Notes: generated by a model not told the origin, from the letters alone. Positions 2,470 to 34,765 are shown, counted from the first letter of the stretch. The stretch: DNA of 34,765 nucleotides from Jimgerdemannia flammicorona (GCA_003990765.1 RBNJ01000269.1:1-34765); one strand, 5' to 3'. Numbers and translations: made by a program.

Positions 2470-3290
2470 TATTGCTCTTGTGCGCTTTTAGATTTCGATT
2501 GTGTTTATATATATATATTATAAATGATAGATTTCCAATATTACATGAATTGTTTGCAGCAAACTTTCATATTCTGTGCCGAATCAATTCCAACAACCAT
2601 TGCGAATGACCATGAGCTGTAAAGATGACCCTTGCAATCGAGGCGGCAGCCAAGCGAAAAAATTCATACGCCTTCTAGTTTTCGGGTGTGCGGGATGTTC
2701 TATCCCTGTAGGCTGTAGGGCACCCTGCGCCCTAAACGAACCCGGTGGTCACATGAAGCGGTGATCGATGTGGGATCTCAATGTGAGACGCGTGCATGTT
2801 CCGAGTGGTGATCGGTAGTCCGAAGCAAGATCGGGTCATGGAACGCTAGAGGCCCTCCTCCCTGGTATTCTGTGCGTGATGCCATCGCATTGCGAGGCGT
2901 GTGATCGGTTATGGGTACTTAGGTGGCCAAGACCAATTTTTGCGAACGAACTTTAGTACTAAAGTTGATCAAAAGTAGGGTGACAAGCAAATACTATAGT
3001 ATAGCCAGATGACATACAAAGAACACTTAGCATAGTTACCTCACATAGTTACCACATGCACCACCAATTTGTATAAATAACCAGATGTATATATATACCA
3101 AATTGGATATATTGATCTCATTCCAAGTGGAACACTCAAGTAGAACACTCAGTAGAACACCTGTTCTACAGGAAATATCTGGGAACAAGTGGTCACACCT
3201 TTTCTGAATTAGCCTTACTGCACATTCTATAATTATCCAGATAGTAACCAGATAGCAATCACACTTATATAAAATATCTCAGAGATTTAA

Positions 3291-4465
3291 ATGAATAAAC
3301 CTCAGTCTGAAAAGTCAAAGAATAGCAAAAGTCAATTGTCTAGTATACTTAAGGGAAACATCTGCCAAAAGTCACTTGATCTAGAAATGATAGAGATTGT
3401 CTACTAATAAGCCACTATTAAGAAATTTGAGCTTTATTCTCTTTTCTACTCTAGTCTACTTTCTGATATAAAGAAGTCTACTAATTTTGGTCTACTTATC
3501 AGATTAAGTCTGAAGAACTTTAAGATATCTGTTATATTGAGAAATCTACCAAACTGTCATATTATATCAAATCTGTACCTAATAAGGAAATTGCTGAGAT
3601 TATCTATATTTTAAGAGAACTTGTATTCTCAAAAATCTACTGAATATTTTATTACTTTTTAACAAAATAACTAAGAGCTCAAGTCAAACTATATAACTAT
3701 TCTAACTTTGTAATTTATCTTTATTAAGTTGGTATATTATATTTAGAGACTCAACTAGAAAGATTTTTGAAATTTATATAACTTTTCAGCTTATAAGAAC
3801 TCAATAGTCAAATCAGATATATTTGATATAGTACTAATCTCTATTACTATAGAAGAAATAATCATTGCAAGACTTACCAACTATCTGTTATCAGAAGATT
3901 CCAACTAAAAGTTAGTACAGTACAGAACTCTTTACTATTATTAGCAATTATATGTAGCTTATAAATATATCAGAAGCACTAGTAAATTTATCATCAAGAG
4001 ATCTGACCTAGCTAAATCAATTAGATAATATAGATAACATTATCTAAACTTTTGATAAACTTGTATAAGAACTTGGAGACCATATTGTTCAATTCTGATT
4101 TTTCTTAAAAGTTTTATCTATTTTATCTCTATCTAAACTAGCAGACTCTCTAAGCCTAGCACCTTCAAGAATATCAAGAAGTATATCAGTATTTTAAAGA
4201 CTAAGTACATATTCTTTAACTCTCAGTAGCTCAACTAGACTTAGTATATATATTTATAGGAATAATAATTAAAATAGATTTAAAAACTGAGAAAGAATTA
4301 GAAGATAGTAAAAATAAAATAATAGCACTATTATCTATATTTACAAGATATCTAAAAGAAGATCCAAGAGAGTTCTTAGATACTCTTGAAGAAATCACAG
4401 CCCTGAAAGCTCTTGCTCTCAAAAGACAAATTGTTATCTTTAAGATATAGCTAAGAGAATTAGTC
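3291..4465 (+). pseudogene. Degenerate ORF relic, 3' part resembling Ty3/Gypsy Gag capsid N-terminus
   Basis: ATG at 3291 followed by many stops. Region ~4330-4465 reads LSIFTRYLKEDPREFLDTLEEITALKALALKRQIVIFKI*LRELV, reminiscent of the Gag pattern F.G...EDP.EFL...E.......W.........L.G.A. Cut off by LINE copy A. Confidence 0.4.
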
Positions 4466-4467
4466 AA

Positions 4468-7400
4468 TATATCTTTCTCCAGTAATATTTAGATTATACA
4501 AACTTCTGGCAATACTCAAGACTTTATTTTTGGAGAAAAGATACTAGCAATATAGCAACCAATGAGTATTCTGAGATATATATAGGGCAGAGTGGCTCTA
4601 GTGTATTTGACTAGTAGTATATAGAGAGGAGTCATGGCTTAGGGGAAAGTATGAGGAGCTTACTGGCTAGAAGATGTAGAAGAGAAGAAGGCAGTACTGA
4701 GAGACAGAATAGAGAGAATGAGCTTTGTAGACAAGGTGAAGGGAGGTCAACTGATGATGATAACTAGACTGGAGAGCTAACTGAGGAAGAGCAAAGAGAT
4801 AGTGAGAGCTATAGATTCTGGGAGAGTAGCCCATAGCAGTAAGAGCAGCAGGACTAGAGGAGTAGTGGCTGAGAGGAGTGGGACTGCTGATGGCAAGAGG
4901 ACTGTTAATCTAGAAAAAAATCTATATATAATAGTTGATGGTAGATCTGAACAGAGGGTGGGCAAGAGGTCTAAGGACCTGGTAGATAGTGTGATAGGAC
5001 TGGTGGCAGTACTATTACTCAAGAAATTGAGGTTAGAATTTACCATCACAATATATTTCTGGGGCTTGGCAATAATGGCAAAAATAATTCTGGAGCTTCT
5101 GGCCCAAGAGGTGAAGGGGGCTACTTTAGTGAAGTTTTTGAAGAGACTAGAAAGAGTGGAGGTCAGCTTTGAGAAGGAGGAGGTGCTGTTGGAGACAATA
5201 GAGAAAGGAGTAATAGTGGGGGGGGGGTAGTGATCTCTATGGCCCAGTATTTGCACTGAGATCTCCAAGTGATATAGCTGACAGTACTGGATGTACCTAT
5301 GGTATCAAAGAAAATGGCCAGAGAGTTAATTATGGAGGCCATCAAGGAGTATAGAGATATCATAGATATTGGATTTAGGATCTGAGAAGGTACAGAATTC
5401 AGGACCAGAGATGTAGATATCAGAGTGAGGCTAATAGATAAGGAGAATATGAGGAAGACAAGAAACTGATCAGCAGTTCTTAAGTGGGAATCTGTAGAGT
5501 ACAAGGTCTCACAAGTAAAAGAGATGCTAGAAGAAGAAGAGAACTTGCTAGAGATACATATTAGAGAATCTGGCTAGAGAGAAGGAGATTGACCTGGAAG
5601 AAGTATGAGATCAAGATAGTTGTAGAAATTGTCAATAGCAAGAAGGTGCAGCTGGATCAGACAGCCTGAGAGAGAGTATAGGAGAGATATATCCAGAAGG
5701 AGCTGTTGGCTAAGTTGGAAGGGGGGGCAGCTAAGGAAACCACCACTGAAGTGGCTGGATTGAAGGTGAGTACCTGGGTAGGAGAGAAGGGAGTGGAACT
5801 GAAGGGAACTCTAGGAGTGGAGAGGATACTAGGTGGAGTATCATGGTGGAGAATACAGAGATAGTAGAAAGAGAGAACCCTCAGTATGAGGTATCAGATA
5901 GGGCTGGAGGTGATGATAAATTGTAAGATATGCTGGAGGAGGATTGGAATGAGTCAGTAAGGAGAAAAACAGAGGAGAGACAGGTGGAAGGAGTATTAGA
6001 AGTGGTCCAGAGAGTGACAGAGGCTAAGACTAAGAAGAAATAGCTATAGAAGATACTGGAGAATATGGCAGCTGAGGAGCTGGAGGGAGAGGACTTCTAG
6101 ATACTAAGTAAGAGATACTGGAGTAAAATCTTATAAGTGAGAAGGTGCTACAAAAACTCCAGAATGAGATAATGGCAGTATTATTAGAGGCCAAGATATA
6201 TCAGATTGATGGTGCTAGGGAGACAGTGCTTCTGGCAATTGCAAATGATAGGACTGATTATATATAAGGCCTGAGAAAAGAGCTGGTAAAGTAGCAGATG
6301 GTGTGCAAGGAGTATTATACAGAGATGGAGGCTGTAGATGGTACAGATTACCAGGAGATACTAGAGACATTGGAGGCTTAACAGAGAGAGGCAGATAAAC
6401 TAGAGGCAGAGAGGAACCTGGAACTATTGGGGATACAGTGAGTATAGAATTATAGAGTGGAGGACTGTACTTCAAATAACATTATTCAGTATAAATAGTA
6501 TAACTAAAATCTTATCTCTAAATGTTAATGGGCTCTGAGGAAGGGTGAGGTGGCAAAATATCTTTAGATGACTGAAAGGGACAGATGTTAATTTGTTTTT
6601 ATTATAAGATATTGGGTATAATGGGAATCTAAATAGTCAGGACTAGACAAAGAAATGGGGTGGTGTAGCTGTTTGGCAAGAATGTATGGGGCATTCTGAT
6701 TAGGAAGGGTAAGAGAGATTTGGACAACATTGGACATTGGGAGAGTAGGGTAAGTGTGGGGTATTTGGAAGAGACTGGGCTAGAGACCTTTGATAGTTGG
6801 GTTGTATTATTGTCTGGCAGAAAGGGGGGAGAGAGGGGAATGGATCTATAGGCTACAAGAGTCTGGAGGCAGGAAATGATTGTTTAGGGAGAGACTTTAA
6901 CATAATACAGGATAGGAAGATTGACTGAACTAATGAGAGTAGAGGGGTGATAGACAGGAGTGGAGATATAGAAGCCTGGAAGGAGGTTAAATTTTTGAGC
7001 TCTTTAGTAGATACTAAAAGGCTTAGATGGAGGAATCATAAGGTCTTTACTCACTGGATAGCAGGGCTTGACTTGAGGATTGACTAGATATTGACTGCTT
7101 ATTGCTGGGAAGTTGATATCAGGAGGTCTTTAGAGGCTGTTTGGTATTCATGGTCAGATTACTAGGGTCTTTTAGAAGAGGGATATTTTGGGAGAGATAG
7201 GGAGAGATCTAGATATTGATGACTGAATACTTCTTTGCTAAGAAAGGTCTCTCTATAGGAGGCATGGGTGATAGACATTAGCTCTAGAATTCTTGACTGG
7301 AGAGTAGCAGGACTGTGATTGGGGATTAATGGGTACAATTGAAGTCTGAGGTACAATGGTACTAGAGGGAGGCAGAAAGGATATAGAGTACTCAAAGGAG

Positions 7401-9805
7401 GAAGTAAATAAGGTGGGTCTTCCAAAGGTTGGTAAGGTTGTTGGTGTCTTGGACAGATCTAACAAATAAAGAAGTGGAGAGAGATTGGCACATACAGTGG
7501 GCCAGGCTGGAGGTAGAGGAGCTGAAGGGTATTCTGTAGTAGAAGGAGAATCTATAGGTTAAGAGCATAGTGATCAGATTGCAGTAGTAGAGATTGGAGG
7601 AGGGAGAATGGCCAATCAAGTTTTTGTTGCAGCTATTGCAGGCAAGGAGAGTCTGATAGTAGTGGGAGGGAGTATTAGATAAGACTGAGGAGTTGGTAGT
7701 TGGGATATCAGAGATTTTAGACTAGCTGAGTAGGTGGTGAGAATACTTATAGAGTGAGAAGAATAGAGGGGAGGGGGTGTTAAACATTGACAGATACTTG
7801 GAGAAATAGTACTCTGATCCAATAGCAGGTTTAGGGGATCTTGGTGCTGCTGTTTAAGGAGAGAAGATTTGGTAGGTTCTGCTAATGATGAGCTCTGGGA
7901 CTATGTCAGAGAAGGATAGCTTATAGTAGAATTTCTGAAAAAGAATGACAGAAGTTGAGTTGGCCCTAGAGGAAATGATGACAATATGTGATAAAGTAAT
8001 AAGCTCTAGGGTATAGATTAGAGGACAGAGCTTAGGTTTTGTAGCTCTGCTATTTAAGAATAAGGAGAGGAGAGAGGAGTGGAAGAACTGGAGACTGATT
8101 ATACTTCTGGATATAGATTGCAAACTGGTCATGAAGGTCTGGTAGCTAGGCTGCAGAGAGTAGCCCAATAAGTCCTGGGGGCTAAGCAGAGAGAATTTGT
8201 AGGAAGATATCTGATCAGAGATAAGATAGCATGAGTGTATGATATCATTAAAGATACTCACTCTGCTAGAATAGATGGATGACTAGTCTTTCTGGACCAG
8301 AAGAAGGCCTATGATAGAGTCTGATAAGTATGGTTAAAGAGAGTGCTAAAGTGTATTGAGATCTCTTATGAGGTCTAATGGGCCTTAGTCAGTTTGCTAA
8401 AAGAGAGTCAAGTAGCAATTATAGTAAATGAGTATAGAGAGATCTCTTTCTCTCTGAGCAGAGGAGTGCTGCAAGGGGATCCATTATTACTGATTTTGTA
8501 TATGCTATCCCTGGAGTTACTTTTGGATAGAATATAGTAAAAGGTAGAAGAATTGGACATTCTAGAGGTTAATTAGAAGGTGGGGGCCTTTGCTAATAAT
8601 ATAGTAATTGAGCTGGAGTCAACTGTAGATATTGTAGTACTGAAAGATGCTGTAGAATGGTATGAAGAGTGCTCAGATACCAAACTCAACTGGCACAAGT
8701 ATGAGACTTTAGTGCTAGGAGGAGAGATAGTAGGTAGAGACATGATTAGAACAATTGTTCTAGTGAGAGAGGCTGTTTGATATCTGGGGATCTACTTTTC
8801 AATGTATGACTCCTTGCTACCATATAAGTGGTGGGAGCAGAGGTTAGTAGAGTGGGGAAGTACTCTTTTAGAGTGAGGTGGTTGCTATATTTCTCTAATA
8901 GGAAGGGTAATAGTATTGAATATCTACTGGCTGCCTAAGCTATAATATCTAGGATACTATTTGGACTTTCTAGTATAGGTGATCAAGTAACTACTAAAGA
9001 TGGCCAGAACCTGGATATGGGCAGAGTGGCAGAGTCAGATTGGTTGCGAGATGTTGACCTGACCAGTAGACTAGTGAAGACTGGGTCTGGTGAATTTTCC
9101 CAAGTATCTTCACTGTTTGAGAGTATGATGGTTGAAGCAAGTAAGTGAGTTAGAGGCAAGAAGTAGATTCCACTTATACAGAGGATGTAGGAGGCCTGAT
9201 TCTCTCCTGGGGTAGAACTGGGAATCTTCTCTCTCTGGTAGCTTTGGAGGAGAGTTAGAGGATATAGTATAGGGGATTTTGGTGGGGGGTGGCTGATGGA
9301 GAGTAGCTGATGGGGTGCACCATATTGGTCTCTATTAGAGGGGTGATGAAGGAGAGGAGGAATAGGAACTCTGGATATAGAGGTAGGATTACCTTCTATT
9401 GGGCAAAGCATCAGTAGATAATTTCTGCTTGAAGAATAATATAAAGTACCTTTGGGAGCATGGGAGAGATCTGTGGCCCAAGATATAGCAGAGAGTGGGA
9501 ATTGGCAAGGAGTAGAAGTAGAACAGTATTTGGTAGTGGAGCAAGCAGATAGCTAGATAGATCTCCAGTGGTATGGTAGAGAGTATTATAGCATAATATT
9601 ATATTGAACTATAGGATGAGCTACTTGGTGGTAGGGGGTACCTAGGAGTATAAAGAGTATCTGAATATTAGACAGAAGAGAGGAGTGATATAGATCCCTG
9701 AACATTAGCTGGGAAAGTGTGAGATGATGAGAACTTTTGAAGAGAGATTGAGGTATAGCTGAGAGTATAATCACTAGAGTTAGCAGTAGGAGAAAGGTAA
9801 GATGG
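4468..9805 (+). mobile_element. L1/Tx1-like non-LTR retrotransposon, copy A (intact 5' end, ORF1 and ORF2 relics, 3' end missing)
   Basis: 5' end atctttctccagtaatattt matches copy E at 22966. ORF1 relic ~4630-6480 is colinear with 23130-24975. ORF2 carries endonuclease and RT motifs. No poly(A) tail; right boundary approximate. Confidence 0.9.
6491..9805 (+). pseudogene. LINE ORF2 relic: APE endonuclease, reverse transcriptase, C-terminal Cys/His motif
   Basis: ATA at 6491 (ATG at 19784 in copy D) then NSITKILSLNVNGL; GDFN ~6890; RID.IL; WKNWRLIILLDIDCKL ~8080; FLDQKKAYDRV ~8290; GVLQGDPL ~8463; AFANN at the (Y/F)ADD site, intact AFADD at 17738-17752 in copy C; YLG ~8781. Many TAG/TGA/TAA stops. 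Confidence 0.9.
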
Positions 9806-11172
9806 CTGTCTGATGTCTCAAGGCCAGATCTTATTGGTATTCTCCCAGACCTCAAATATACCATTCTTATATAGATCTTTGCTTAATACTCTTCCAGTCT
9901 CTTTCAGGCTCTTCTCTATATTCCCTCTACTTTCACTAGCCCAGACACTCATCTTGGCTCCCCCAGTATCCTCAGTTCTATTAGCAAACTTCTTCATCTT
10001 CTCTTCTAGAGCTGCCAGTAACTCCTTCTGCCTCTTGTGTCTCTGGGAAGCCCCTTATCAATTTGAATATACTTCCTATCTACTATCTCCAAATGTGTTG
10101 ACACTACATATACCTTCCAAGTCTTTGCCCTCTACTCTACAGCTCTACTTAGCTCCTCCAGTACTTCTAACAAATTTTCCTCCTCCTCCTTCTCACTTCA
10201 TCACCTTATATATAATGGTCCTCTACACTATTACTAAAGACTAATCCCAAATCTTCCCAGTAGTCTCTCTCTCAGCCAACTGAATCCTAACATCAACATT
10301 CTCTGTCCTGAATGAGATCTCTTCTCAGATCTAAAGCCCAACATCAACTATCTCTATACTTAGCTATAACTTCCTCAACTCTTCTCTTTATTTCCACAGT
10401 TATCACTATAGAAACTTTCTTTACTAGAAGTTGTACCACCTTGGGGTCCCACCTCAGACAGTATACCATCAGGATATGTATATATCTTTTCAATGATCAG
10501 TCTAATCTTCAGTATAGTCTCCAATAGTTCAGTCTTCTCAAAGCTCACCTTCACTTTATCTAATCTCCTCAGAAACTTCATAGATACCATCTCAGTCATC
10601 TGCTTAATGATCAGCCTCAAGACCATTTTTATCATCACTACCAAGCCCCAGAAGTACAAAGTAATTATAAACTCTGAAATCAACTTTTTGAGTAATGGGA
10701 TCACTGCTAGGCCTATTACTATCTATTAAGTCTCTCATCCTTCTGGACTCTATCTTCTCAGCCCCACTATCAGCAGTCACATCTAGATTTTTTTCTAGAT
10801 CACCAGTCACCCCCCCATTAGTAGTTATACCCCCAGTCACTATATCTCTAGCTCTTCTACTTAATATCTCTAAGAGAGCCCCTTCTGTCCTCTCAGTAGC
10901 AACCATTCTCTTACCACCCTACAGCTATTCATTTAGTTCTACCACTAAATCTCTCTGCTTGATCTTCTCAGCAAAACTCATCTGATTCTCCCCTGGCCTC
11001 ACCATACCCCCACCTCTACTATTACTGACCCTTCTCCCATCTGACAAAGTGCTTGGTATCCCCAACCTAGCTCTCTGACCCTTCCCCATATACTGCTAGC
11101 TAAACACACCAGGGCTACCCTGCTCAATATACTCTCTAGAACTCTGATTCATGGACATGTTCTTAAGATGTT
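9806..11172 (-). mobile_element. LINE copy B, 5' ~1.4 kb only (5'UTR plus part of ORF1), inverted, diverged subfamily
   Basis: Minus-strand ORF LLKKLISEFIITLYFWGLVVMIKMVLRL matches copy A LLKKLRLEFTITIYFWGLAIMAKIILEL. The 5' end begins aacatctt as in copy E and shares the gcagggt(a/g)gc.ct.gtgt.ttt..ctagcagtat block. Confidence 0.85.
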
Positions 11173-11557
11173 TCTCTAAAGAATAGTATAAAAGTAGGTA
11201 ATATATATTTATATAACATGAGATATATTAGAAAGAGTTACTGTAGTATTTATGATATAACTTCTTATCTAATACTAAACTAGATCCGCTATCTACATAA
11301 GGAGTAAGTAAATGAGATTTAACTCAAATACAAAAAGATGAGATATATTTACTATGTAAAATATATCTGACCACCTAAGCTACTCTATTAAAAGTTATCT
11401 GTCAACTTGAGTAGATATTAGAGGATGAGTTTCTTTACTAACCAACTTAATATATTACTGAACATATGTATGCTACTGGACAGATATTTGATATCTACTT
11501 AAGCACTTCTCATGCTCAACTATGAAAATTGGCCATGGTCACATAAGTATTTCAAAC

Positions 11558-11614: not shown

Positions 11615-12337
11615 CAAATAGTACACAAAAAAAGAAAATGAAAATAATGGTTTTATTCACCAAAGGGTTCGCAATCCATCTCGATCCTAGCCTTCACCTA
11701 CAAACTGTAAAGGCGAAGACAGCGCGAGTTCTGAGAAGCTCACAGGGAACAAATGTGACCACAACAGTGAATCTCGTACTTAAGTAAAAACGGAGAATTT
11801 CATGAACAGGAACGCGTAGCTCTCCTTCGTCATCCTCTCGGTTCACCTACTGGCCAGTCATGCATCCATAATGCATTTAGGCTCCATTCCAGTTACTCCA
11901 ACAAATATTTCTATACTGCATCGTAACTTCAGAAAGGTTGACGGATAGGGCTGTGCAAGTGAGTGACGATTGCGGTGGCCGGATCCGCTGTTCCCAACAT
12001 TCCAAAATGATGACTTGCACTTTCTAGCATGTAAGTCAGTAGACAAGGCCGGCTCCCTTGACATCATTGACACAACCATGACATTATTTGAAAACTTCAC
12101 TTAGGGTGTTCTCATTGAATTTCTGGCCACATCGTTACTCAACGAAGTTTAGTGAACCTCGCTGAAGATAAAAAGGCCATTGTCGATGATGGTTAAAGAT
12201 GACTTTGGAGTGTAAAACATCCAGCAGATTGACAGCTTTCTCCTTTTATTATCTTCTTTATTAATTGGTTGCTATCCTTACGCTAATCTCGTTAATTCCC
12301 AAAGTTATTTCCCCGTTTTACATCTACAAAGTGGTAA

Positions 12338-12372
<35 letters not shown>

Positions 12373-12383
12373 ACTTGGAAGAT

Positions 12384-13370
12384 TCACATGTAGCCGGGTC
12401 TGTGGACAAAAGATACTCCCTTTTTGACCTCTTCTTTCAGTACGGGGCTAACGATACGCAATAGTCTCTTCTCGTAGCTCGAGATTGGGCCGAGGGGGTG
12501 GATTTTGACGACACCTTGGGGTCCAATATCCACTTTAGGCGCAAAGTACTCCAGCTCTCCGACCTCCGCCCTGATGGAAGCGGCTCCCACGGGATCAGCG
12601 TCGAGGTTTAAGTACGTGTACTCGACGACCGTCTTGCCGTTGATGATAGCGTTCAGCAGCGAAAAGATAAATCTGGAGGCGGCGTAGGCAATGGAGAGCG
12701 GGGACCTATGCAGCCCATCCTCGACATTAATAACATTGTCGCTGCAGAACTGGACGCGACGGGTCACGGCCTCAATTTGACTCTGTGACAGCATCCGGGA
12801 GACTTTGACTTGGGAAATGAGCGGGACGATGGTGAGTCCGCTGTGGCCGCCAACGACAGGGATGCGGAGCGAGCGAGGATCGGCGTCGATGAAGTAGGCG
12901 ACCAAGGTCGAGGCGTGGACGATATCAAGAGTCGTGACACCGAAGATCCTTCTTGGGTCGTAAACTTTATGCTTCTTGAAGACCTCGACAACAATAGGGA
13001 CGGCTTGGTTGACAGGATTGGACATGATAACCATGAAGGCCTTAGGGCTGTATCTGGCGGCGGCGTCGGCGATGTCCCGCACACTGAGGGCGTTTATCCG
13101 GAACAGCTCTTGAGGAGTTTTGGGCCTACGGTTCGAGACGGCGGGAATGAGGATGATATCCGAGTCCTGGACGGCCTCCTTGAGCGAGGCATGGCCAACA
13201 TGACCAGTGACTATGCCCTTGGTATCGATGTGGCTCAGGTCGATCGCGACACCTTGAGTGTTTACAATATCGTAGAGGGACAGGTGGTCGATGAGGTTGA
13301 CCTGTTTCAGGAGTACGGAGAGAGGATGGCCGATTCCACCAGTAGCACCGCAGATGGTAACTTTGACCAT
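12384..13370 (-). CDS. Malate dehydrogenase-like protein (mitochondrial/glyoxysomal/E. coli-type MDH fold), divergent active site, 328 aa, no introns in CDS
   Basis: ATG at 13370. MVKVTICGATGGIGHPLSVLLK, LSLYD, GVAIDLSHI, SNPVN, RIFGVTTLDIV, PVVGGHSG.TIVPLISQ and LSIAYA are all MDH-family hallmarks. Uninterrupted ORF, GC-rich third positions, CpG retained. Confidence 0.93.
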   Translation of the reverse strand: MVKVTICGATGGIGHPLSVLLKQVNLIDHLSLYDIVNTQGVAIDLSHIDTKGIVTGHVGHASLKEAVQDSDIILIPAVSNRRPKTPQELFRINALSVRDIADAAARYSPKAFMVIMSNPVNQAVPIVVEVFKKHKVYDPRRIFGVTTLDIVHASTLVAYFIDADPRSLRIPVVGGHSGLTIVPLISQVKVSRMLSQSQIEAVTRRVQFCSDNVINVEDGLHRSPLSIAYAASRFIFSLLNAIINGKTVVEYTYLNLDADPVGAASIRAEVGELEYFAPKVDIGPQGVVKIHPLGPISSYEKRLLRIVSPVLKEEVKKGVSFVHRPGYM

Positions 13371-22961: not shown

Positions 22962-25382
22962 CAACATCTTTCTCTAGTAATATTTGGATTATATAAATTT
23001 CTGGCAATACTTATAATATTATTTTTGGAGAATAGGTATTAGAAATATAGTGACCAATAAGTATTCTGAGATGTATACTGGGCAGGGTGGCTCTAGTGTA
23101 TTTGACTAGCAGTATGTAGAAAGGAGTTATGGCTTGGAGGAGAGTCTGCTGGACTCTCTTGCAGATGAAAGAGAAGGTAGAAGAAATAGAGCTGAAGCTA
23201 GTAGACAGGGGCCTGGAAGGATGAGCTTTACTGATAAGATAAAGGAGGGACATTCATTGACTAGACTAGAGAGTTGGCTGAAAAAGGACAAGGAGATGGC
23301 AAGGACTGTAGAGTCTAGTGGAGTAACCTATAACAGTAATAGCAGTGGGGCTAGAGGAGTAGTGGCTGGGGGAAGTAGAACTACTGATGATAAGAAAACT
23401 GCCAATCTGGAAAAAAATTCAAATATGATAGTTGATGGTAGATCTAGACAGAGAGTGGGCACAAGGTCTGGAGATCTAGTAAATAGTATATATAATAGAC
23501 CTGGTGACAGTACTATTACTTAAGAAATTGAGATCAGAATTTGCTATCACATTGTGTTTCTGAGGCTTAGTAGTAATAGTGAGAATAATTTTGAAGCTTC
23601 TGGCTCAGGAGGTAAAAAGAGCAGTCTTGGTAAAATTTTTGAAGAGTTTGGAAGGAGTGAAGGTAGGCTTTGAGATAGAGAATATGCTGCTGAAAGCAAT
23701 GGAGAAGGGAGTGATAGTAGGGGGGGGGGTAGTAATTCCCATAGCTTAGTGCTTATACTAAGACCCCAGAGTAGTGCAGTTGATGATAGTAGATATATCT
23801 ATAGTGTCAAAGGAGATGGTCAGGAGGTTGATTGTGAAGGCTGTCAAGGAGTATGGAGATATTATAGATATTGGATTTTAGGTCTAGAAAGGCACAGAGT
23901 TTAGAATAGAAGATATGGATATCAGAGTACAATTGGTAGACAAGAAGAATATGGAGAAAGTGAGAGACTGGCCAGTAGTCCTCAAATGAGAACCTGTAGA
24001 GTACAAGGTTTTGAGAGTGAAAGGGATACCAGAGGAAGAAGAGGACTTGCTAGAGATATTGGAGGATCTGGCAGGGGCTATTGAGAGGAGGAGATTGGTC
24101 TAGAAAGAGTTTGAGACCAAGACAGTAGTAGAGATCATAAATGACAAGAAGGTGTAGCTGGATCAAGTAGCCTGGGAGAGGATACAGAGGAGACATATTC
24201 AGAAGGATCTGTTGACAAAGTTAGGAGGGAAGACAGAAGGAGGGACTGTCATTATAGATGTTGGGTTGAGAGTAAGTACCTGGGCAAGAGAGAAGGAAGC
24301 AGTACCAGAGGAGGTCCTGGGGGAGAGTGGAGGCTCAGAACAGAGTGTAGTAGTGGAAGATGAGAAGATGGGTAAGGAGGAGCACCCACAGTATGGGGTA
24401 CTAGTAGGGGCCAGAGGTGATGACAAACTGCAGGATATACTGGAGGAGGATTAGAATGAGTTGGTAAAGATAAATAGAGATGAAGGACAGGTGGAAGAGG
24501 AAAAAAAGGTGGCTCAGAGAGTGGAGGAGGCAGTTGATGAGGAGAAGTAACTGTGGAAAATACTGGTAAATATAGTAACTGAGAAGCTGGGGGGGAGGAC
24601 TTTTAGGTACTACTTAGTAAGAGGTATTGAGGAGAAATTCTGCAAGGTGAGGAGGTGCTGTAGAAACTCCAAGATGAGATAATAGCAGCTTTGCTAGAAG
24701 CTGAGATATATCAAGTAGATGATGAAAGGGGGGCAGTACTTTGGGTAATTATAAATGACCAGACTACTTATCTGTGGGGCCTAAGAAAGGAGCTGGCAAA
24801 GTAGCAGATAGTGTATAAGAAGTATCAGACAGATATGGAAGCTGTGGATGGTGCAGATTATTAGAAGATCTTAGAGGCATTGGAGGCTCAGCAGGGAGAG
24901 ATAGATGAGCTTGAGGCAGAAAGGAACCTAGTGATGCAGTAAGTATAAAATTGTAGAGTGGGCAGCTGTTCTTCAAAAAATATTATTCAATATAAATAGT
25001 ATAACTAGAATCTTCTTTTTAAATATCAATGGACTATGAGGAGCAATGAGATATAAAAATATCTTCTGCTGACTAAAGGCTGGACACAGATTTATTCCTA
25101 CTATGTATAAGATATTGGATGCAATAGAGACTTAAATATTCTGGACTAGATGAAGGAATGGAGTAGTGTGGCTATTTGGTGTGAATGTATGGGTATTCTG
25201 ATTAGAAAGAGTAAGGGGGATATTAGAGACATTGGACATTAGAGGAGTAGAATAGTGTGGGGAGTTTGGAAGAGGCCAGGCTAGAGACTCTTGACTGTTG
25301 GGTCATATTATTGTCTAGTGGAAAGAGGGAATAGATTTGAGAGCTATAAGAGTCTGGAGTATTAGTAGAGGTGGAGATTGAT

Positions 25383-25733
25383 CAGTATATCAGCCCCTTT
25401 CTCTGCTACCTTACCAGTCACAATGGTTTGATAGATAATCTTCCAAGTCTACTTTCCACAATTATTACTCTCTCTACCTTAGGTTAGTTTGCTATACCTA
25501 TTGTAGAGCAGTGGAAGAGAGGCAATGGTGATGAGTTGTCCCTTTATCAGTGTTCAATCAGTATCTTCTCTACTTTTTTACAGTTTCTGGTACCTTCAGC
25601 TACATCTGGGGTGTATCTATTTTAGTATAGTATCTTCTTCCTTTTGCCATTACCAACAAGATATTGTCTTAGTATATTATGAGTTATATAGGAAGTTGGC
25701 TGACCTTGGATGTCAAGTGTCCTATATAGGTTA

Positions 25734-25790
<57 letters not shown>

Positions 25791-28083
25791 CGTCACTTGG
25801 ACTCCCTTCCTTTATTAATACCCATCTATCCCATACAATTACAATGATCCCACCCCCTATCCAATCCCCCTAGGGGGGCCCCCTCCCCCTACCCCTTCTC
25901 TGTAAAAGACCACTTTGTCAAACACTATCCCTACCCTCCCACCATTCTGCTCACAGATCCTCATCACCAGACTGCGACATTGTCCTCCCTGAGGACCCCA
26001 ACCCACCCACCATCTGGTCAGCAGATCCCCCACCAGCTCCTCCCATCATAACACCTTCTCATACAGCCCCAACCACTGCCCCTCCTCAAATACAAAAAGC
26101 CAGTGGCCTGCCAGTCCCACCCATACTGCTAACACCTATTCTACAGTGAGCCAACTATCCCCCACCCCACTTACAAGCCGAGATCGTAAGTCCTCCCAGC
26201 GACCTCTCTCCCCCACCTGCTGATGCCCCACACCCAGTCGATTCCCAATCTCAGCCCAAAATTCCCCCAAGACCTCACACTCTCCCAGCCAATGTTCCGG
26301 CATCTGTACATAACCCCCAGCCTGCCCAACATCGTAACACTCCTTGCAGTCAAATTGTCCACCCTCTACTAAATGCTCTGAGTGGAAATTCAGCATGACA
26401 TTCCTCTGCAACATTCACCACCACACCACCCAGAACTTAGGAGGAAGCTACCACTGTACCTCAGCACTCCAAGACCAGATGCCTGCCCAGTCCCACTTCT
26501 CTCCAATTCCAACTGCCTGCCAGCTACTCAGCCAAAGGTCCTGGCCAAGCCCCTGCTGACACTCCACTCTCTCCCCAATATCGAACGCAGCCAGAGGAGT
26601 ACCCCCCAGGAGCAGTCTATCTCAACACCACATATTAGGCCCCCACGCCACCTCCCTCTCATTACCTTGCCATCGCAGGCCAATTCGGTGTGCTCCATTG
26701 GCCACTTCCCACCAAAAGCCCTTAAACTGCAGCCTCCGAACTCCATTCAGCCCCACCAAAGAGAGCAGATCTCTGGAGAACCCTCGGGGGGATGTTCGCA
26801 TCTCCCATACCTTCTGCAGCAGAGGCACTCAACCTCTGCCCTGCAATTCCACAGCTCTCTTCAACCACCAGGCTCTCAAACAGTACAGCCTCTTAGGGAA
26901 ATCCACCAGGCCAAGACCCCCCATGACTATCAGTCCGCAAGAGTATCCCAACTGACCTGGGACCTCCTCCCCACCCAAATCCAATCCCTAGCCACCTTCG
27001 TCAGCTTCTTCACCACTCATGCTGGGAAGTCAAGGTGATATGCCACATACTACAGCTTTGGGAACCAATATACATTCAGGATCAACACCCACCCTGCTAG
27101 AGAGATATGGTGGCCTCCCCAACCTCGAAGGGCCTCCCCCCAACTATTCACCCTGCCCTCCCACTACACTCATGGCAAGACAGAACCATATATAGAGAGG
27201 AAGATGCCCAGATACCGTACCATCTCACCAGAAGGGACAATTGTTCCTATATAGGTTACCTACAGATTCTTAGTACCTATAGTAGAGCCCTCTAACTTTG
27301 GCAAGCTTCCCAGTAAGTATGGTTCTGATATAGGTAACTATTTTTTGGGTGGTATTGAGATAGGAGAGGAGATGACTATCATAGATAAGAAAAAGGGTGA
27401 TAATGGTGAACCAGTAGAGTGCTAGACTGGGGGCAGTCATTGGGGCTGGGGCAAGTGCTACTTTGGTGGGGTCTTTTGATTAGTGCAGAGTAGTTAGATA
27501 ATAGGTATCACTCATGGCTTCTTTTGGCAATACATGGGGTTGGACCCCAGTTATTGGGTGGAGTTGGGGGGTCTAAGACTACCCATTTAAGGCATCTTGG
27601 CTATACTCAACTAGAACTGAGAGCTGATATAGCAATGTGATTGAGGCCCACAGACTTGAGTAGTAGGGTATTGGGGGTCTCCTCCTACCTTACATATAAG
27701 TCCTTTACTCACCTTATCTAAGAGAACCAGGCTCTATCTACTGTAATATACTTTGATAAGAGTTTTTCTTTGCCTATCATTCTCCTTGGGGTGGTAGGGG
27801 CTATTCTATTTAGCTCAAGCATAGTCTTATACATACATTGGGGTTTTGAGCATATGCTTTTAATCATTAGCATATGGCTGAGTTCCTCCTGGTAATAGGA
27901 AGAGCATAGTATACAGAATGAGATATAGACCACTATAGGTTCTGCTGTACCTGACATGGTTGAGCTGCTGAACAATAACTAGTCTAGATTAATGAGAAAG
28001 CAGTGCTTGATGGGTGGTGGGGGAGGGTTTTGGCCTATATAGTCTATATTCTCTTTTAATAAAAATCTGTAGAACTCTAAGTC

Positions 28084-28151
<68 letters not shown>
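25383..28151 (+). mobile_element. Poly(A)-tailed retroposon 'X', copy 1 (~1.2 kb net, split by LINE copy F)
   Basis: 25417-25736 plus 27262-28086 are colinear with 30187-31331. AATAAA 28058-28063, poly(A) 28087-28151, TSD gagattga(t/c) at 25374 and 28152. The host endonuclease frame resumes after the tail. Confidence 0.85.
25737..27244 (-). mobile_element. LINE copy F, 5'-truncated 1.5 kb, youngest insertion
   Basis: Poly(T) to 25788, TTTATT 25811-25816, perfect 17-bp TSD tcctatataggttacct (25720-25736, 27245-27261). Minus strand encodes VRYLGIFLS...CKECYDVGQAGGYVQMPEHWLGEC. Retains several CpGs. Confidence 0.93.
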
Positions 28152-28154
<3 letters not shown>

Positions 28155-30188
28155 ATTGACTGTCTAAGTGGAAACTTAACATGACATATGATAGAAAGGT
28201 AGATAGAACTAATAGGAAAAGGAGAATGGCTAGTAGGAGTAGTGGTATAGAAGTCTGAGAGGAAGTCAAATATCTGAGTTTATTAGTAGATACTGAGAGA
28301 CTTAGATAGAGAGATTATAAGGTCTATACTCACTAGGTAGTAGGATTGGGCTCAAGGATTAACTAGATGTTGACTGCTGAATACTGGGGAGTTGATATGT
28401 ATCTGGAGAACTTTGGAAACTGTTTAGTACCTATGGTCAGATCACTGAGGCCTTCTAGAGGGGGAGTATTTTAGAGAAAGTAGAGAGGGACTTAGATATT
28501 GGCACCTGAATACCTCATTGCTAAAGAAGGCCTCCTTATGAGATATATGGGTAATAGACATTAGCTTCAAGATACTTAGCTAGAGAGTAAAGGGGCTGGT
28601 AATTGGAGATCATTGGAGGAGATTGAAATCAGATATACAACAGTACTGAGAGGAGGCAGGAAGAATGTATAGTGCTCAGAGGAGAAAGCAGATGAGATAG
28701 ACCTCCCAGAGATTGACAAGGTTGTTGGAATTATAGACAGATCTGCTGAATGATGGTGAGGAGAGAGATTGGAGAATCCAGTAGATCAGGCTAGAGGTGA
28801 AGAAGTTGAAGAGATTGCTGAGGTAGGAGAAAGACCTATAGATAAAAGACATGGTGGCCCAACTGAGGTAGCAGAGATTAGAGAGATCTATAAAGTTTTT
28901 ATCATAACTTCTACAGATGAGGAGAGTATGGTAGTAATGAGAGAGGGTATTGGATGAGGTGGGGGAGTTAGTTGTTGGGACACTAGAGATTTTAGACCAG
29001 TTGAGTATATGGTGAGAGATAATTGTGAAGTAAGGAGAAAGGAAGAGTAGGGGTACTAGATATTGACAGATACCTGAAGGACTGGCACTCTGATCTGGCA
29101 GAGGACTTAGATGACCTTGGTACTTCTGTCCAAAGAGAGGAGATTCAGTGAGTACTGACAATAATGAGCTCAGAGATGGTATCAGGAAAAGATAGCTTAC
29201 TATAGAATTTTTAAAAAAAGATAGCAGGAGTCAAGCTGATTTTGGAGAAGATAATGAAGATGTGCAATGAAGTCATTAGCTTAGGGGCATAGATTGGGGG
29301 GCAGTACTTGGGTCTTATGGCTCTGCTGTTTAAGAATAAAGAGAGAAGAGAGGAGTGGAAGAACTGGAGATTAATCATACTTCTGGATATAGATTATAAG
29401 CTGATCACAAAAATACTAGTGACTAGACTACAAGGTATAGCTCAGCAGATATTAGGGACTAAGCAGAGAGGGTTTGTAGAGAGCTATCTGATCAGAGATA
29501 GAATAGTCTGAGTGCATGATATCATTGAAGGAGCTCATACTACTAGAGTGGATAGATGATTGTTTTTCTGAACCAGGAGAAGGTCTATAACAGAGTTCAG
29601 TAAGTATGACTAGAAGGAATGCTGAAGCATATAGAAGTCCCCTCAGAGGTCTAGTGGGCCTTGGTTGATTTGCTAGAAGAGAGTCAGGTAGTAATTCTAG
29701 TAAATAGACATAGGGGAGTTTTATTTCCTCTGAGCAGAGAAGTGCCACAGAGGGATCTACTGTTACTAATTCTATACATACTGTCCCTAGAGCCTCTTTT
29801 GGATAGGATTTAGCAAAAGGTGGAAAGTTGGACATCCTGGTGGTTAATTGGAAGGTAGGGGCCTTTACTGATAATATAGTGGTCAAGTTAAAGTTAGCAG
29901 AGAATGTAGTAGTACTGAAAGGTATGGTAGAGTAGTATGAGGGATGCTTGGGTACTAAGCTTAACTGGTATAAGTGTGAGACTTAGTATTAAGAGGAGGG
30001 ATAGTATGTAGAGATATAATTAGAACAATTGTCTCTATAAGAGAGACTGTTTGCTATCTAGGAATCTACTTCTCAGTATATGGCTCTTTGTTACTCTGCA
30101 GATGGTGAGAGCAGTAATTGATAGAGTGAGGGAGTGCTCTCTTGGAGTGGAGTGGTTATTATATATCTCTGACAGAGAGGGTGATAGT

Positions 30189-31327
30189 CACAAGGTTTGG
30201 TAGGCAACCTTCCAAGTCCCCTTTCCCCTAATATTACCCCTCTCTACCTTGGGTTGGTTTGCTGTATCTGCAGGGGCATAGTGGGAGGAGGGCAATGGTG
30301 ATGAGTTGCCCCTTTATTGGTGTCGGATCAGTGCTTCCTCTACTTTTTCGCAGATTCTGGTACCTTCAGCTGCATCTGGAGTATACTCATTTTGGTGCGG
30401 CACCTTCTTCCTTTTGCCATCACCTACAAGGTATTGTCTCAGTGTGTCTTGGGCTACATAGGGAGTTGGCTGACCTTAGACGTCAAGTGCTCAGTATAGG
30501 TTACCTGCAGATCTTCAGTACCTGTGGTGGGGCTCTCTGGCTTTGGCAAGCTTCCCGGCAAGTGCAGTTCTGGTGTAGGTGACTGTTTTTTGGGTGTTGT
30601 CAGGTTGGGAGGAGAGATGGCTATCATAGATAGGAGGAAGGGTGATAATGGTGAACCAGTAGAGTACCAGGCTGGGGGCAGTCGTCGGGGCTGGGGCAGG
30701 TGCTGCTTTGGTGGGGCCTTTTGATTGGTGCGGTGTAGTTAGGTGGTAGGTGTCACTCTTGGCTTCTTTTAGCAGTCAGCGGGGTTGGGCCCCAGTCATC
30801 AGGGGGGGTTGGGGGGCCCGAGGCTACCCATTTCAGGCATCTTGGCTGTACTCAACTAAAACCAGGAGCTGATATGGCAATGTAATTGAGGCTTGCAGGC
30901 TTGAGTAGTGGGGTATTGGGGGCTTCCTCCCACCTCATGTGTAAGTCCTTTACTCACCTCGACTGAGAGAACCAGGCCCTACCCACTGTGTTGTACTTTG
31001 ATGAGGGTTTTTCTTTGCCTGTCACTCTCTTTGGGGTAGCAGGGGCTATTCTATTCAGCTTGGGCATGGTCTTGTACATATATTGGGTTCTCGGGCATAC
31101 GCTTTCAGTAATTGGCATATGGTTGGGTTTCCCCTGGTAGTAGGGAGAGCATGGTATACAGAATGAGGTGCAGGCCAATATAGGCCCTACTGCACCTGAC
31201 ATGGTCAAGCTACTGGACAATGACTAGCCTAGATTAATGGAGGTACAGTGCTTGGTGGGTGGTGGGGGAGGGTTTTGACCTATATAGTCTAGGTTCCCTT
31301 CTAATAAAATTCTATGGGACATGAGTC

Positions 31328-31404
<77 letters not shown>
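30189..31404 (+). mobile_element. Poly(A)-tailed retroposon 'X', copy 2
   Basis: Perfect TSD agagagggtgatagt (30174-30188, 31404-31418), AATAAA 31303-31308, poly(A) 31332-31404. Homologous throughout to copy 1. Confidence 0.9.
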
Positions 31405-31407
<3 letters not shown>

Positions 31408-32701
31408 AGGGTGATAGTGTTAAATATATACTGGTTATCTAAGTTATAGTATCTGATATACCACTTGAACTTTCTGACATGAGTGGTCAAGAGATTATTA
31501 AAGATAGCCAGGACTTGGATATAGACAGAGTAATAGAGTCAGATTGACTAAGAGATATTGATCTTACTAGTAAACTGAGAAGAGTTGAGTCTGGTGGATT
31601 TTTCCAAGTACCTTCATTACTTACAAATATGGTAGCTGAAGTGAGCTAGTGAGTTGAGGAGCAGAGAGTGGATTCCTCTCATACAGAGAATGTAGAAGGT
31701 CCAGTTCTCCCCTTATGGTATAACTGGGGACCTACTTTCTCTGGTAGCTTTGGAGAAAAGTCAGAGGATGTACTTTAGAAGATTCTGGTGAGAGGTAATT
31801 AATGGGACTCACTATATTGGTCTCTAATAGTAAGATAATGAGAGAAAGGAAAACTAGGGACCTCAGATATAAAGGTGAAACTATCTTCTGTTGGGTAGAG
31901 TATTAGTAAATAACTTCTGCTTAGAGGATAGCATGGAGTATCTTCAGGAGTATGGGAGAGATCTGTGGTCTGAGATATGGCAGAGGGTGGAGATTGGCAA
32001 AGAGTGGAATTGAAATAGAATTTAGTTATAGAATAAGCAGGTAGTAAGATAGATTCCCCCCAAGTTCTGAGTGATATAATAGAGACTTCTATAGTATAAT
32101 ATAATGTTGAACTATAGGTTAGATCACTTGGTGAAAGGAGGTACTCAGAAGTGTGAGGAGTGTCTGAATATTGAATAGGATAAAAGAGTGGTACAGACTC
32201 CTAAACATTGACTAGAGGAGTGTGAGGTAATAGGTGACTTTTGAAGAGTGATTGAGAAGCAGCTAGGGGTGTGCCCACCAGAGCTGATAGTGGGAGAGAG
32301 GTGGAGTGACTCTGAAGAAGACTAGTGGGGGGTTGGGGAATGAGTGGCTGATATTGAGATGGGTGCTAGCTATTTGAGTAGGGCTTGCCAGACATTAGTT
32401 ATATGTATTTGAGAAAGGTTAATAGCTAATACTAGAGGTGAGAATTACCAGATAAGAGTGGCTGATGGTAGACTTGTTGAATGAGTGGTGGAGAAGGTAG
32501 GGTATTGGTGAGAGTATTAGAGATATCTAGTAGAAATAATTTGTAGAAAGAGTGGGAGAAGAATTGGAGTAGCAGAGGGGATGGCAGTATTTTGGAGAAA
32601 TAGTAAGAGAAGAGAGGAGCTTCTTTGTAGAATTGGGTGAGAGGTTCATTTATATTAGTATAATATAGACAGTTTGATAATAAAGTAGAAGTCCTTGTGA
32701 C

Positions 32702-32734
<33 letters not shown>

Positions 32735-32736
<2 letters not shown>

Positions 32737-32858: not shown

Positions 32859-33090
32859 TAGTGATGGGCAAAAGGGTAATAATGTTTTGAAAATTTTACT
32901 TTTATAAATAATATCTCTATAAATAATTAATATAATGAAATGTAACTTATATTTTCCAAAAGCTCTTGCTTTTCTTTACCATTGGTTAAAATATCATTTT
33001 GATACCATTATTATTTAGCTTACAATAAATTTTTACATTAATACTATGTATTGTTACCCTTTTGGTTTTTCCACTGCCATTTTTGCTATT

Positions 33091-34107
33091 TTAATATTTT
33101 ACATAACCTCCTTTGGCCTTGTATACAGCAGCAATGCATCTTGGCATACTCTCAATTAGGTTAATGCATTTTTCGGTCAATATGCCTTCCCATTCATGCT
33201 CTATACATTCCCAAAGCTTTTGCATTTCTTTAGGTAGTTCATCATATGCATTGAGCAGTTGTTTGAGATGTCTCCAAAGATGTTCAATTGGATTAAGATT
33301 GGGGGACTGTGCTGGCCAATCTAGCAAACAGATGAAATTGTTCTTGAACCAGTTGTATGCCATCTTCAATGTATGTTTTGGATCATTATCTTGTTGAAAT
33401 ATCACCTTCTTTTTGTCCATTCTAAAGAATTTAATAGATTCCTTTAATTCATCTTTGAGGATTTCTATATATAGCTCCAAATTCATATACCCATCGATTC
33501 TGCATATATATCCAATGCTATAGTAACTCATACATCCCCAAATCATAATCGATCTGCCACCAAATTTCAATGTCGGAGTCACGTGATATTGCTCAAGCTG
33601 TACCCTGGGCCTCTTCCATGCCCATTCTCATCCATCCAACCCCAAACAGTTGACTTTTATTTCATCTGAGAATATCACCCATTTCCAGTCATCTATGGTC
33701 TAGTTCTTATATTTTTGTGCAAATTCGTACTACAATTTGATATGGTGTGGCAATAATAACAGCTTTTTCTGCTTCATGAATGACTTCAAACTAGCACCTT
33801 TTAACATTCGACATACTGTGGTTGCACTCACACTGGCTTGGCCCTCTTCTTGAAGTATTTTTGCGATGTTTGCAGCAGTTTCAACCTTGCCACTAGACAC
33901 TTGGTGGACAATCCATGATCTATCTTGAGTAGATAACTTTGGTGGACAACTGCCTTTTGATATGTTTGCATCATCACAATGCTCATTTCAGATGTGGCTA
34001 ACTGAAGTAATGCTTATGCTGATTGCTTTGACAATCTTTTTTGCCGACTGCCCAGAATTCAACCTATTGATGATAGTGTCATGAATCTCAATAGATAGCT
34101 TCTGCAT
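33091..34107 (-). pseudogene. Tc1-family transposase, 339 codons, four premature stops, no frameshift
   Basis: ATG at 34107. WKWVIFSDE, GGRSIMIWGC, FQQDNDPKH, WPAQSPNLNPIEHLW, with 34 residues between the second D and E. In-frame stops at 33988-90, 33730-32, 33700-02 and 33628-30. Confidence 0.95.
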
Positions 34108-34152
34108 TTTGTATAAGAAACGAATGTTGGTATGAATTTTTATACCATTTTT

Positions 34153-34194
34153 ATGCCAAGAATGATGTCAAGAATGATGCCAAGAATGATGCCA
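34153..34194. repeat. 12-bp tandem repeat (atgYcaagaatg x3.5) in the transposase leader
   Basis: Directly visible between the right TIR and the transposase ATG. Confidence 0.85.
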
Positions 34195-34473
34195 TATGTT
34201 GCAGCTGTATAAAAGGTTGAGCGAGTTATGTGAAATATTAAAATAGCAAAAATGGTGGTGGAAAAGCCAAAAGGGTAACAATACATAGTATTAATGTAAA
34301 AATTTATTGCAAGCTAAATAATAATGGTATCAAAATGATATTTTAACCAATGGTAAAGAAAAGCAAGAGCTTTTGGAAAATATAAGTTACATTTCATTAT
34401 ATTAATTATTTATAGAGATATTATTTATAAAAGTAAAATTTTCAAAACATTGTTACCCTTTTGCTCACCACTG

Positions 34474-34765
34474 TATATATATCTGGGCTAGCAGTGGAGA
34501 GAAGATGGGATACTCTCTGGGAGAGGTTGGTGGAGGGGTAAGTGATGAGTAGTTAACTATTGGGTGGGTTATGGCTGTTTGGATGGGCTTGCTGGACATT
34601 GGCTGTATGTATTTGAGGAGGGTCAACAGGTGGTGCTTGGAGAGCAGGTTGCAAGGTGGAAATGGTTGGTGTTAGACCTTTTGAATGGCTGGTGGCAGGG
34701 GTGGGGACCTGGAGGGGGGTGCTATAGGAGACTTGTGGAGAAAATCTGCAGGCAGAGTGGGGGGA
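34474..34765 (+). mobile_element. LINE copy D, 3' part, running off the window
   Basis: Colinear with 18910-19200 (copy C) and 32270-32560 (copy E). Confidence 0.88.

Follow-up and report, generated by a model that had tools for sequence, protein, structure and literature searches.

Analysis of a 34,765-bp contig (RBNJ01000269.1:1-34765, referred to here in its full length as the window) demonstrates that its transposable elements (TEs) have decayed by one-way C-to-T change. The change is restricted to repeats, acts equally on both strands, follows the context order CpG > CpA > CpC >> CpT, and depends both on the age of an element and on the position within it. The interpretation that we favor, with a probability of roughly 0.6, is that this decay represents methylation-linked C-to-T mutation directed by chromatin domains. 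Methylation as the cause, the enzyme that would write it and chromatin as the setter of the domains are the components of this reading that we infer.

The repeats were resolved by self-alignment and reading of junctions, nested elements being bounded by target duplications, and domains in the relics were called with Pfam with stops read as X. The following elements were identified (LINE, long interspersed nuclear element; ORF, open reading frame; RT, reverse transcriptase; LTR, long terminal repeat; MITE, miniature inverted-repeat transposable element; o/e, observed/expected ratio):

2950..4441, no strand assigned: relic of an AT-rich repeat that forms the left edge of block 1, with 0 CpG
4442..9800, plus strand: heavily mutated LINE copy a (ORF1 and endonuclease/RT ORF2), 67-73% identical to d and efg, 1 CpG against 178 expected
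9850..11285, minus strand: 5' (ORF1) fragment i of a LINE of a distant subfamily, ~60% identical to a and e, 0 CpG against 43 expected
15518..19379, plus strand: LINE bc, 5'-truncated and with a poly-A tail, a single insertion split by the MITE (b and c are contiguous against copies d and f), 0 CpG in b and 1 in c
16272..16674, no strand assigned: MITE, rich in AT, bearing short terminal inverted repeats and flanked by a 9-bp target duplication, from junction reading
19383-22962, 32734-32856 and 34476-34765, plus strand: pieces of LINE d, which encloses the rest of the nest and runs beyond the contig; RVT_1 match with E 2.9e-14, pieces joined by junction alignment
22963..32733, plus strand: LINE efg, nested in d with an ~18-bp target duplication and a poly-A tail, split by X-A and X-B; RVT_1 match with E 0.00055, 0 CpG against 180 expected
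25382..28150, plus strand: X-A, inserted in efg and interrupted by LINE h, the older of two copies of a non-LTR 3' fragment that has a poly-A tail; 0 CpG against 46 expected
25737..27244, minus strand: LINE h, a younger insertion in X-A with a 16-17-bp target duplication, consisting of the 3' part of a LINE of a distant subfamily; CpG o/e 0.24, GC 0.54
30189..31403, plus strand: X-B, the younger copy of the X-A element, with a 15-bp target duplication; CpG o/e 0.18, proxy of the ancestor
32859..34473, minus strand: Tc1/mariner DNA transposon in d, with a TA target duplication and ~250-bp inverted repeats; DDE_3 and HTH_Tnp_Tc3_2 domains, CpG o/e 0.25

Insertion of LINE into LINE is recurrent and has built four levels of nesting (d > efg > X-A > h), so that the order of nesting gives the ages of the elements independently of their mutation load. 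The younger interior elements h and X-B retain more CpG and GC than the elements that host them, and retrotransposons and the DNA transposon are both mutated.

The most extreme component of the decay is the loss of CpG. The old repeats, 23,482 bp in total, contain 5 CpG where 765 are expected (o/e 0.0065), two of them in 2950-11550 (positions 9047 and 11287; 301.7 expected) and three in 15520-25780 (18368, 19440 and 19881; 310.7 expected). This map, down to each surviving position, is exactly the one given in the original prediction for this DNA, which was made from the sequence alone. Unique DNA keeps its CpG, with 212 against 176 expected in 1-2948 (o/e 1.20) and 203 against 209 in 11670-15515 (o/e 0.97), and its non-coding part has a GC content of 0.44-0.47 and a CpG o/e of 0.92-1.10. 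The switch is abrupt: the 300 bp outside three borders hold 23, 14 and 21 CpG (21.7, 15.7 and 16.7 expected), and the 300 bp inside them hold 0, 1 and 0 (9.2, 6.4 and 15.6 expected). Three younger elements that lie beyond position 25780 retain CpG at an o/e of 0.18-0.25. The predicted restriction of mutation to repeats holds; the stated span of 2950..34765 takes in these three elements and the unmutated 3.8-kb island at 11670-15515.

In the young Tc1 element the CpA/TpG o/e is 1.39-1.52 and that of TpA 0.69-0.79, CpG being the first context to be lost. The old LINE copies have the predicted excess of TpA, but it is modest (o/e ~1.1-1.26 versus 0.68-0.83), and an excess of CpT/ApG is the stronger mark (1.45-1.6 versus 0.79-0.91). 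Among the CpG that survive in the young elements (25790-27249, 30189-31331 and 32862-34472), TpCpG is over-represented, with 39 against 21.4 expected among 88 strand-sites (P 0.0002), and no such bias is found among the CpG sites of unique DNA. Consistently, TpCpG has the lowest loss rate among the NCG contexts of the LINE segments (0.49 versus 0.61-0.66).

The decay extends well beyond CpG. The cleanest comparison is that of X-A read against X-B over 1140 columns, with X-B as the proxy of the ancestor. C/G sites of X-B are T/A in X-A at 157 of 579 positions (27%); the reverse direction gives 38/561, an upper bound on T-to-C change since C-to-T changes in X-B are included, and 29 columns carry transversions. 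With the 3' neighbor the same in both copies, C has become T at 8/8 CpG, 60/159 CpA, 40/148 CpC and 10/148 CpT sites. Both CpA and CpC differ from CpT (P 3.6e-11 and 3.9e-6, respectively), and the difference between CpA and CpC is borderline (P 0.05). The two strands are equal, with 24/62 and 46/108 for CpA and 15/57 and 35/143 for CpC, which confirms the predicted non-CpG events on both strands. After correction, loss at CpT amounts to 2.7 times the transversion level, which makes CpT usable as an internal neutral control, and CpA and CpC exceed it 6.7-fold and 4.5-fold. A context model using the corrected rates (CpA 0.47, CpC 0.31, CpT 0.07) reproduces the X-A/X-B data in simulation.

Other comparisons are noisier. 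Seven LINE segments, a count that omits the distant or misaligned copies h, i and j, give 0.59 for CpG, 0.41 for CpA, 0.32 for CpC and 0.23 for CpT, and a strict count over four LINE copies gives 101/305 for CpA, 47/147 for CpC and 92/780 for CpT. Majority-rule polarization of the LINE copies was dropped as a rate estimate because its T-to-C class was inflated by parallel hits and subfamily divergence (272 versus 466; 281/4113). The two ~250-bp inverted repeats of Tc1 differ by nine transitions and no transversions; by reading of the alignment, five of these are at CpA, one at CpC, one at CpT and two at one former CpG. A search of public sequencing runs listed one small run (X1, with a share of 0.14) and no RNA run containing the sequence. 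Compared over 25795-28080, X1 yields 36 short contigs with relatedness to LINE h and the X element, 28 of them less than 90% alike; most differences are transitions, towards C/G at 62 places and towards T/A at 27, and the contigs are too fragmentary for context rates.

As predicted, copies of the same family differ mostly by transitions, with transition/transversion ratios of 2.0-7.6 for same-family pairs and 1.2-1.6 for distant subfamilies. The predicted TGG-to-TAG and CAG-to-TAG changes are seen in the RT frame: of the 18 in-frame stops in one copy, 11 lie opposite a CAG/CAA or TGG codon of another copy, five are stops in all four copies and two lie opposite other codons. The proposed mutator of CpG and CpA was correctly placed beyond CpG, but its non-CpG targets comprise CpC as well as CpA, with CpT left largely untouched.

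Ordinary decay of methylated CpG, combined with old age and a general AT-ward bias in unselected DNA, is a very improbable explanation of this spectrum. Although CpG is the fastest context and the first lost in young elements such as Tc1, and TE-directed CpG decay is known in fungi (reported in PMC4352252), CpG-only decay yields a simulated CpA/CpT ratio of 1.2-1.3 and at most 2.7 in 80 runs, compared with 5.6 observed. The corrected CpA and CpC rates relative to the CpT control, the composition of non-coding unique DNA and the unequal load of same-age parts of one insertion, described below, also speak against it.

Direct deamination is slightly easier to entertain, though still quite improbable: a cytidine deaminase, APOBEC/AID-like or other, would act on transposon DNA or silent chromatin without a methyltransferase. 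It would account for the pure C-to-T direction and for a CpG turnover that we estimate, assuming steady state, at ~250 times the T-to-C rate (range 110-790). However, both strands are affected equally, a DNA transposon is mutated as well, and the changes build up after insertion. APOBECs read the 5' base, whereas the rate here is set by the 3' base, and the 5' base barely affects CpA and CpC loss (0.26-0.41). CHG and CHH sites differ little (19/48 versus 81/258).

The non-CpG loss depends on position within a single insertion. From the border with unique DNA inward, insertion bc has lost 13/68, 18/83 and 22/77 of its CpA and CpC, followed by a plateau of 0.38-0.41; part b, which adjoins the unique DNA, has lost 53/228 (0.23) compared with 248/633 (0.39) in part c (P 1.2e-5), and the same columns are flat in copies a, d and efg (P 0.54-0.94). 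In insertion d the loss declines towards the contig end from 330/833 in the body to 12/39, 13/54 and finally 2/43 in the last 145 bp. The last 290 bp have lost 15/97 (0.15) compared with 0.40 in the body (P 1.2e-6), and in bc and efg these columns remain at 0.39 throughout. Of the two Tc1 inverted repeats, the one nearer the contig end carries the T/A letter in 2/9 differences. No such decrease is seen where an element end adjoins another repeat (0.38-0.44 at the 5' end of d, 0.39 at the 3' end of bc). At the left edge of block 1, in relic 2950..4441, the proportion of C with A or C as its 3' neighbor is 0.64 at the border and decreases to 0.30-0.37 inside, a gradient that is uncontrolled since the window has no homologous copy of this relic. 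Both light pieces, b and the end of d, contain no CpG (36.5 and 11.9 expected). The sharp borders of the original prediction thus hold for CpG, whose loss is complete up to the repeat edge, but CpA and CpC loss is graded inward. Two enzymes could be behind these two layers, or a single enzyme that saturates CpG even in places where its activity is lower.

The light edge pieces might alternatively be separate younger insertions or gene-conversion tracts, with a mutator that is uniform inside repeats, or the whole pattern might be an artefact of the library. The window has two controlled tapers only, and the contig ends inside the second. Nevertheless, these alternatives are highly unlikely: b continues into c over the 9-bp target duplication of the MITE, the collinearity of d is preserved over the TA duplication of Tc1, both pieces lack CpG, unlike the young elements, and the loads are graded (0.19, 0.22, 0.29 and 0.38 in one case, 0.31, 0.24 and 0.05 in the other). 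An artefact is further opposed by the intact genes of the window and by the independent run X1 with its related copies differing mainly by transitions.

The host can be recognized from a gene in the unique DNA left of block 1:

217..2469, plus strand: intron-containing flavin monooxygenase gene of the phenol hydroxylase type (Pfam FAD_binding_3 and Phe_hydrox_dim), start codon placed by eye; an unmutated control

Its database matches are two Jimgerdemannia flammicorona proteins, with 88-90% identity over the last exon and 76% over another exon; the two records are near-identical across the overlap of their gene models. This identity places the host in Jimgerdemannia or very near it (Endogonales, Mucoromycota) and excludes an ascomycete, in agreement with the early-diverging fungus that the original prediction had considered. 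None of the three refutations named in that prediction holds, since transitions extend beyond CpG, CpG is retained in unique DNA and the host is no ascomycete. If the monooxygenase is a paralogue of its J. flammicorona relative within one genome, it represents a duplicated gene spared by the mutation.

The confinement of C:G-to-T:A transitions to repeats is a feature shared with canonical repeat-induced point mutation (RIP), of which clustered, strand-coordinated bursts are another feature. On the features tested, however, the decay lies outside canonical RIP. By the RIPper thresholds (product at least 1.1, substrate at most 0.75), none of 52 one-kb TE windows reaches the substrate value (minimum 0.87), while 25/52 reach a product of at least 1.15. 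CpA is not the dominant target, the order being CpG >> CpA > CpC. No strand-coordinated runs are found in X-A (88/156 same-strand neighbors versus 87.2 by permutation, P 0.48), nor any over-dispersion of its mutations (P 0.82), and many rounds of mutation could mask same-strand runs. Outward spread into single-copy DNA is absent from the 300 bp outside the three borders, where CpG is near expectation, selection on the flanks being possible. Finally, a load that varies by position within a single insertion argues against homology alone as the trigger.

True RIP without RID, in which premeiotic pairing of homologous sequences triggers mutation of the DIM-2/H3K9me type over many sexual cycles, is the most probable of the rivals, although we consider it unlikely. 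DIM-2 alone is described as able to mediate RIP in Neurospora (bioRxiv 10.1101/115501), and DIM-2-like genes are listed for the genus. The load of 27% of C/G sites is heavy, and many light rounds would wipe out strand runs. On the other side, DIM-2-mediated RIP in Neurospora is described in the same source as spreading into adjoining single-copy DNA with a strong CpA preference, whereas here the flanks keep CpG, and CpG and CpC are targeted as well. The load shifts along one insertion, while the homologous columns of other copies are flat. J. flammicorona has 37,472 repeat matches longer than 1 kb at 95-100% identity, and the monooxygenase with its 76-90% identical relative keeps CpG, a weak point as paralogy is not established. 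The proposed choice between a homology-directed and a methylation-directed process is thereby shifted: methylation is favored, and homology is disfavored by the position-dependent load, the lack of strand runs, the failed RIP indices and the unlisted RID.

Under methylation-linked, domain-directed mutation, the transposon blocks would be packaged as silent chromatin, within which DIM-2-like enzymes, perhaps together with DNMT1, would methylate cytosines in the order CpG > CpA > CpC >> CpT. Methylated C would then change to T and become fixed through many small independent events on both strands, accumulating after insertion. CpG decay would be fast enough to reach completion up to the last base of a repeat, and the CpA/CpC layer would be set by depth in the silent domain, fading over the outer ~0.3-1 kb beside unique DNA. 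The mutation order observed here equals the published order of Dim2-dependent 5-methylcytosine (5mC) in Zymoseptoria TEs, which is reported as 43-61% at CG, 10-22% at CA, 3-8% at CC and <0.01% at CT (PMC8016269). According to a survey (10.1101/2022.12.01.518749), RID is confined to Pezizomycotina and DIM-2-like genes are present in Endogonales. Of the 83 of 83 C5-methyltransferase domain rows in its Dataset S1 (PMC9963178), three list DIM2 for J. flammicorona and none lists DNMT1, RID1 or DNMT5 for it; for Endogone there are two DIM2 rows, one DNMT1 row and no RID1 row. The same dataset has weak RID1 rows for Gigaspora, and arbuscular fungi are credited with RID elsewhere (PMC8298701), which makes claims of RID absence soft.

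Several points weigh against methylation as the cause. In Zymoseptoria, more than 98% of Dim2-dependent mutations are reported at CA, and CG is not above background (PMC8016269), so that the order of methylation and the order of mutation need not agree. A review ascribes to the Neurospora DIM-2 a preference for CpT, the very context spared here. The DIM-2 identity of the Endogonales genes rests on reciprocal matches of 24-29%, and the DNMT1 row found for Endogone (PMC9963178) has no counterpart among those of J. flammicorona. The J. flammicorona assembly for which neither DNMT1 nor RID1 is listed is ~70% complete. The cleanest rates are carried by one pair, X-A/X-B, and may include divergence between the copies that preceded insertion, and the taper at the end of d is an edge effect provided that unique DNA follows position 34765, as we infer. 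Purely passive decay is strained by the CpG o/e in the old repeats, far below the approximately five-fold depletion given for human (PMC13297926). This depth of CpG loss suggests weak T:G repair or help from an enzyme. A stronger version of the favored reading is that Endogonales possess an active, RID-free mutator based on a DIM-2 paralogue, which would turn methylated C into T across silent transposon domains far above passive rates; we regard this version as possible but doubtful.

As in the Dim2 system of Zymoseptoria tritici (PMC8016269), C-to-T change is restricted to TEs and follows the 5mC order of that system; mutation there is reported as mitotic and independent of the sexual cycle, and here no burst signature is found. 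In contrast to Z. tritici, CpG is the first context to disappear and CpC is strongly targeted (27%), and Z. tritici is an ascomycete with RID, whereas the host here belongs to Mucoromycota with no RID listed. With the RIP of Neurospora crassa and other Pezizomycotina the decay shares its confinement to repeats, its one-way C:G-to-T:A direction on both strands and its stop-riddled but colinear relics. It differs in that CpA is not dominant, the indices fail, outward spread is lacking, young elements are lightly mutated and RID is not listed. Neurospora RIP regions are reported to average a substrate index of 0.44 and 16% GC (bioRxiv 10.1101/115501, PMC12543289, PMC6714961), compared with a minimum index of 0.87 and ~40% GC in the repeats of the window. 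The TE signatures described in basidiomycetes and Tuber are CpG or TpCpG (PMC3318451, PMC4352252); TE-confined CpG loss is common to both cases and is linked in those reports to Dnmt1-class enzymes, but here CpA and CpC are lost as well. TpCpG, the target in Pucciniomycotina, is conversely the best-surviving CpG context of the young elements. Phycomyces blakesleeanus, of the same phylum, has DIM2 and DNMT1 with repeat-restricted CG and CHH 5mC on TEs; the available part of that report (PMC11258239) covers methylation and silencing and not a mutation footprint.

A survey of 1,239 genomes (Badet and Croll, PMC12543289) describes RIP-like signatures as unique to ascomycetes and scores J. flammicorona, Endogone and Bifiguratus as 'no_rip', using k-mer enrichment on scaffolds longer than 50 kb only. 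The longest scaffolds of J. flammicorona and Endogone are 94 kb and 110 kb, with an N50 near 11 kb; the genome of Bifiguratus measures 19 Mb and contains 0.2% repeats. This filter would exclude the 34.8-kb contig, and the spectrum of the contig also escapes CpA indices. A Mucoromycotina genome paper (PMC7928374) mentions RIP, in the part available, in general terms only. Our literature search found no report of repeat hypermutation in Endogonales, subscription papers and the Endogonaceae genome paper (10.1111/nph.15613) being outside it.

The decay is a real genome-level feature and probably represents a variant of transposon mutation linked to methylation. The presence of a strong repeat mutator acting outside CpG, together with DIM-2-like genes and an unlisted RID, bears on the origin of RIP and on the mutagenicity of DIM-2. 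If the active DIM-2-paralogue mutator is true, methyltransferase-linked repeat mutation is no ascomycete invention; it would be the ancestral state behind RID-based RIP or an independent parallel, and surveys would have missed the pattern because they tested CpA or AT-rich k-mers on long scaffolds. If instead methylated cytosines decay passively, the case is striking and the mechanism familiar. Methylation-linked mutation makes a precise prediction, namely 5mC in the order CG > CA > CC >> CT with a taper at repeat edges, and the culturable Phycomyces offers a route to genetics. A mutator of this kind is compatible with genome growth to more than 200 Mb.

The unique island between the two repeat blocks has the following features:

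11670..15515, no strand assigned: unique island with normal CpG by count (o/e 0.97)
12384-13370, minus strand: intronless malate dehydrogenase gene, assigned by protein relatives
14173-14901, minus strand: 242-codon open frame, one stretch of which is rich in cysteine

The malate dehydrogenase gene has a normal CpG content (76 observed against 72.5 expected). Its best match is 67% identical, and its best named relatives, in Mucorales and Umbelopsis, are 53-60% identical. A tree of 31 proteins groups it with three others among Mucoromycotina, on a long branch of 0.93 changes per column, a placement insufficient to fix the genus. It is probably a fast-evolving paralogue, as judged from this divergence, and perhaps a retrocopy. 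The open frame had no match in Pfam, its final 132 codons had none in the Atlas, and the ORF delimited at 14176-14571 matched nothing in either.

Among the relics, LINE bc retains a weak RVT_1 match (E 0.028), and LINE copy a has no Pfam match of its own, nor does relic 2950..4441 or the whole of 2950-11670 when stops are read as X. Metagenome scans gave 124 pattern matches for further copies of the Tc1 transposase, 0 of them confirmed, and 0 matches for a degenerate LINE motif. The segments 2950-4441 and 11286-11669, both of 25-28% GC and without a Pfam match, lie on either side of LINEs a and i, and together they may represent a single older element split in two. A T4-5A repeat run at ~11555-11620 marks the right border of block 1. 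The MITE at 16272..16674, which we take to be Mutator-like from the length of its 9-bp target duplication, consists internally of repeat units of 5-6 bases and has a TpA o/e of 0.55, with little visible non-CpG decay; its arms align too poorly for scoring. The Tc1 transposase frame (33091-34107, 340 codons) has four in-frame stops and no frameshifts, and the left inverted repeat of this element starts with a base that has itself changed from C to T at CpA. The sense strand of the LINEs is strongly purine-rich and G-rich, as in 34476-34765 with 123 G versus 28 C.

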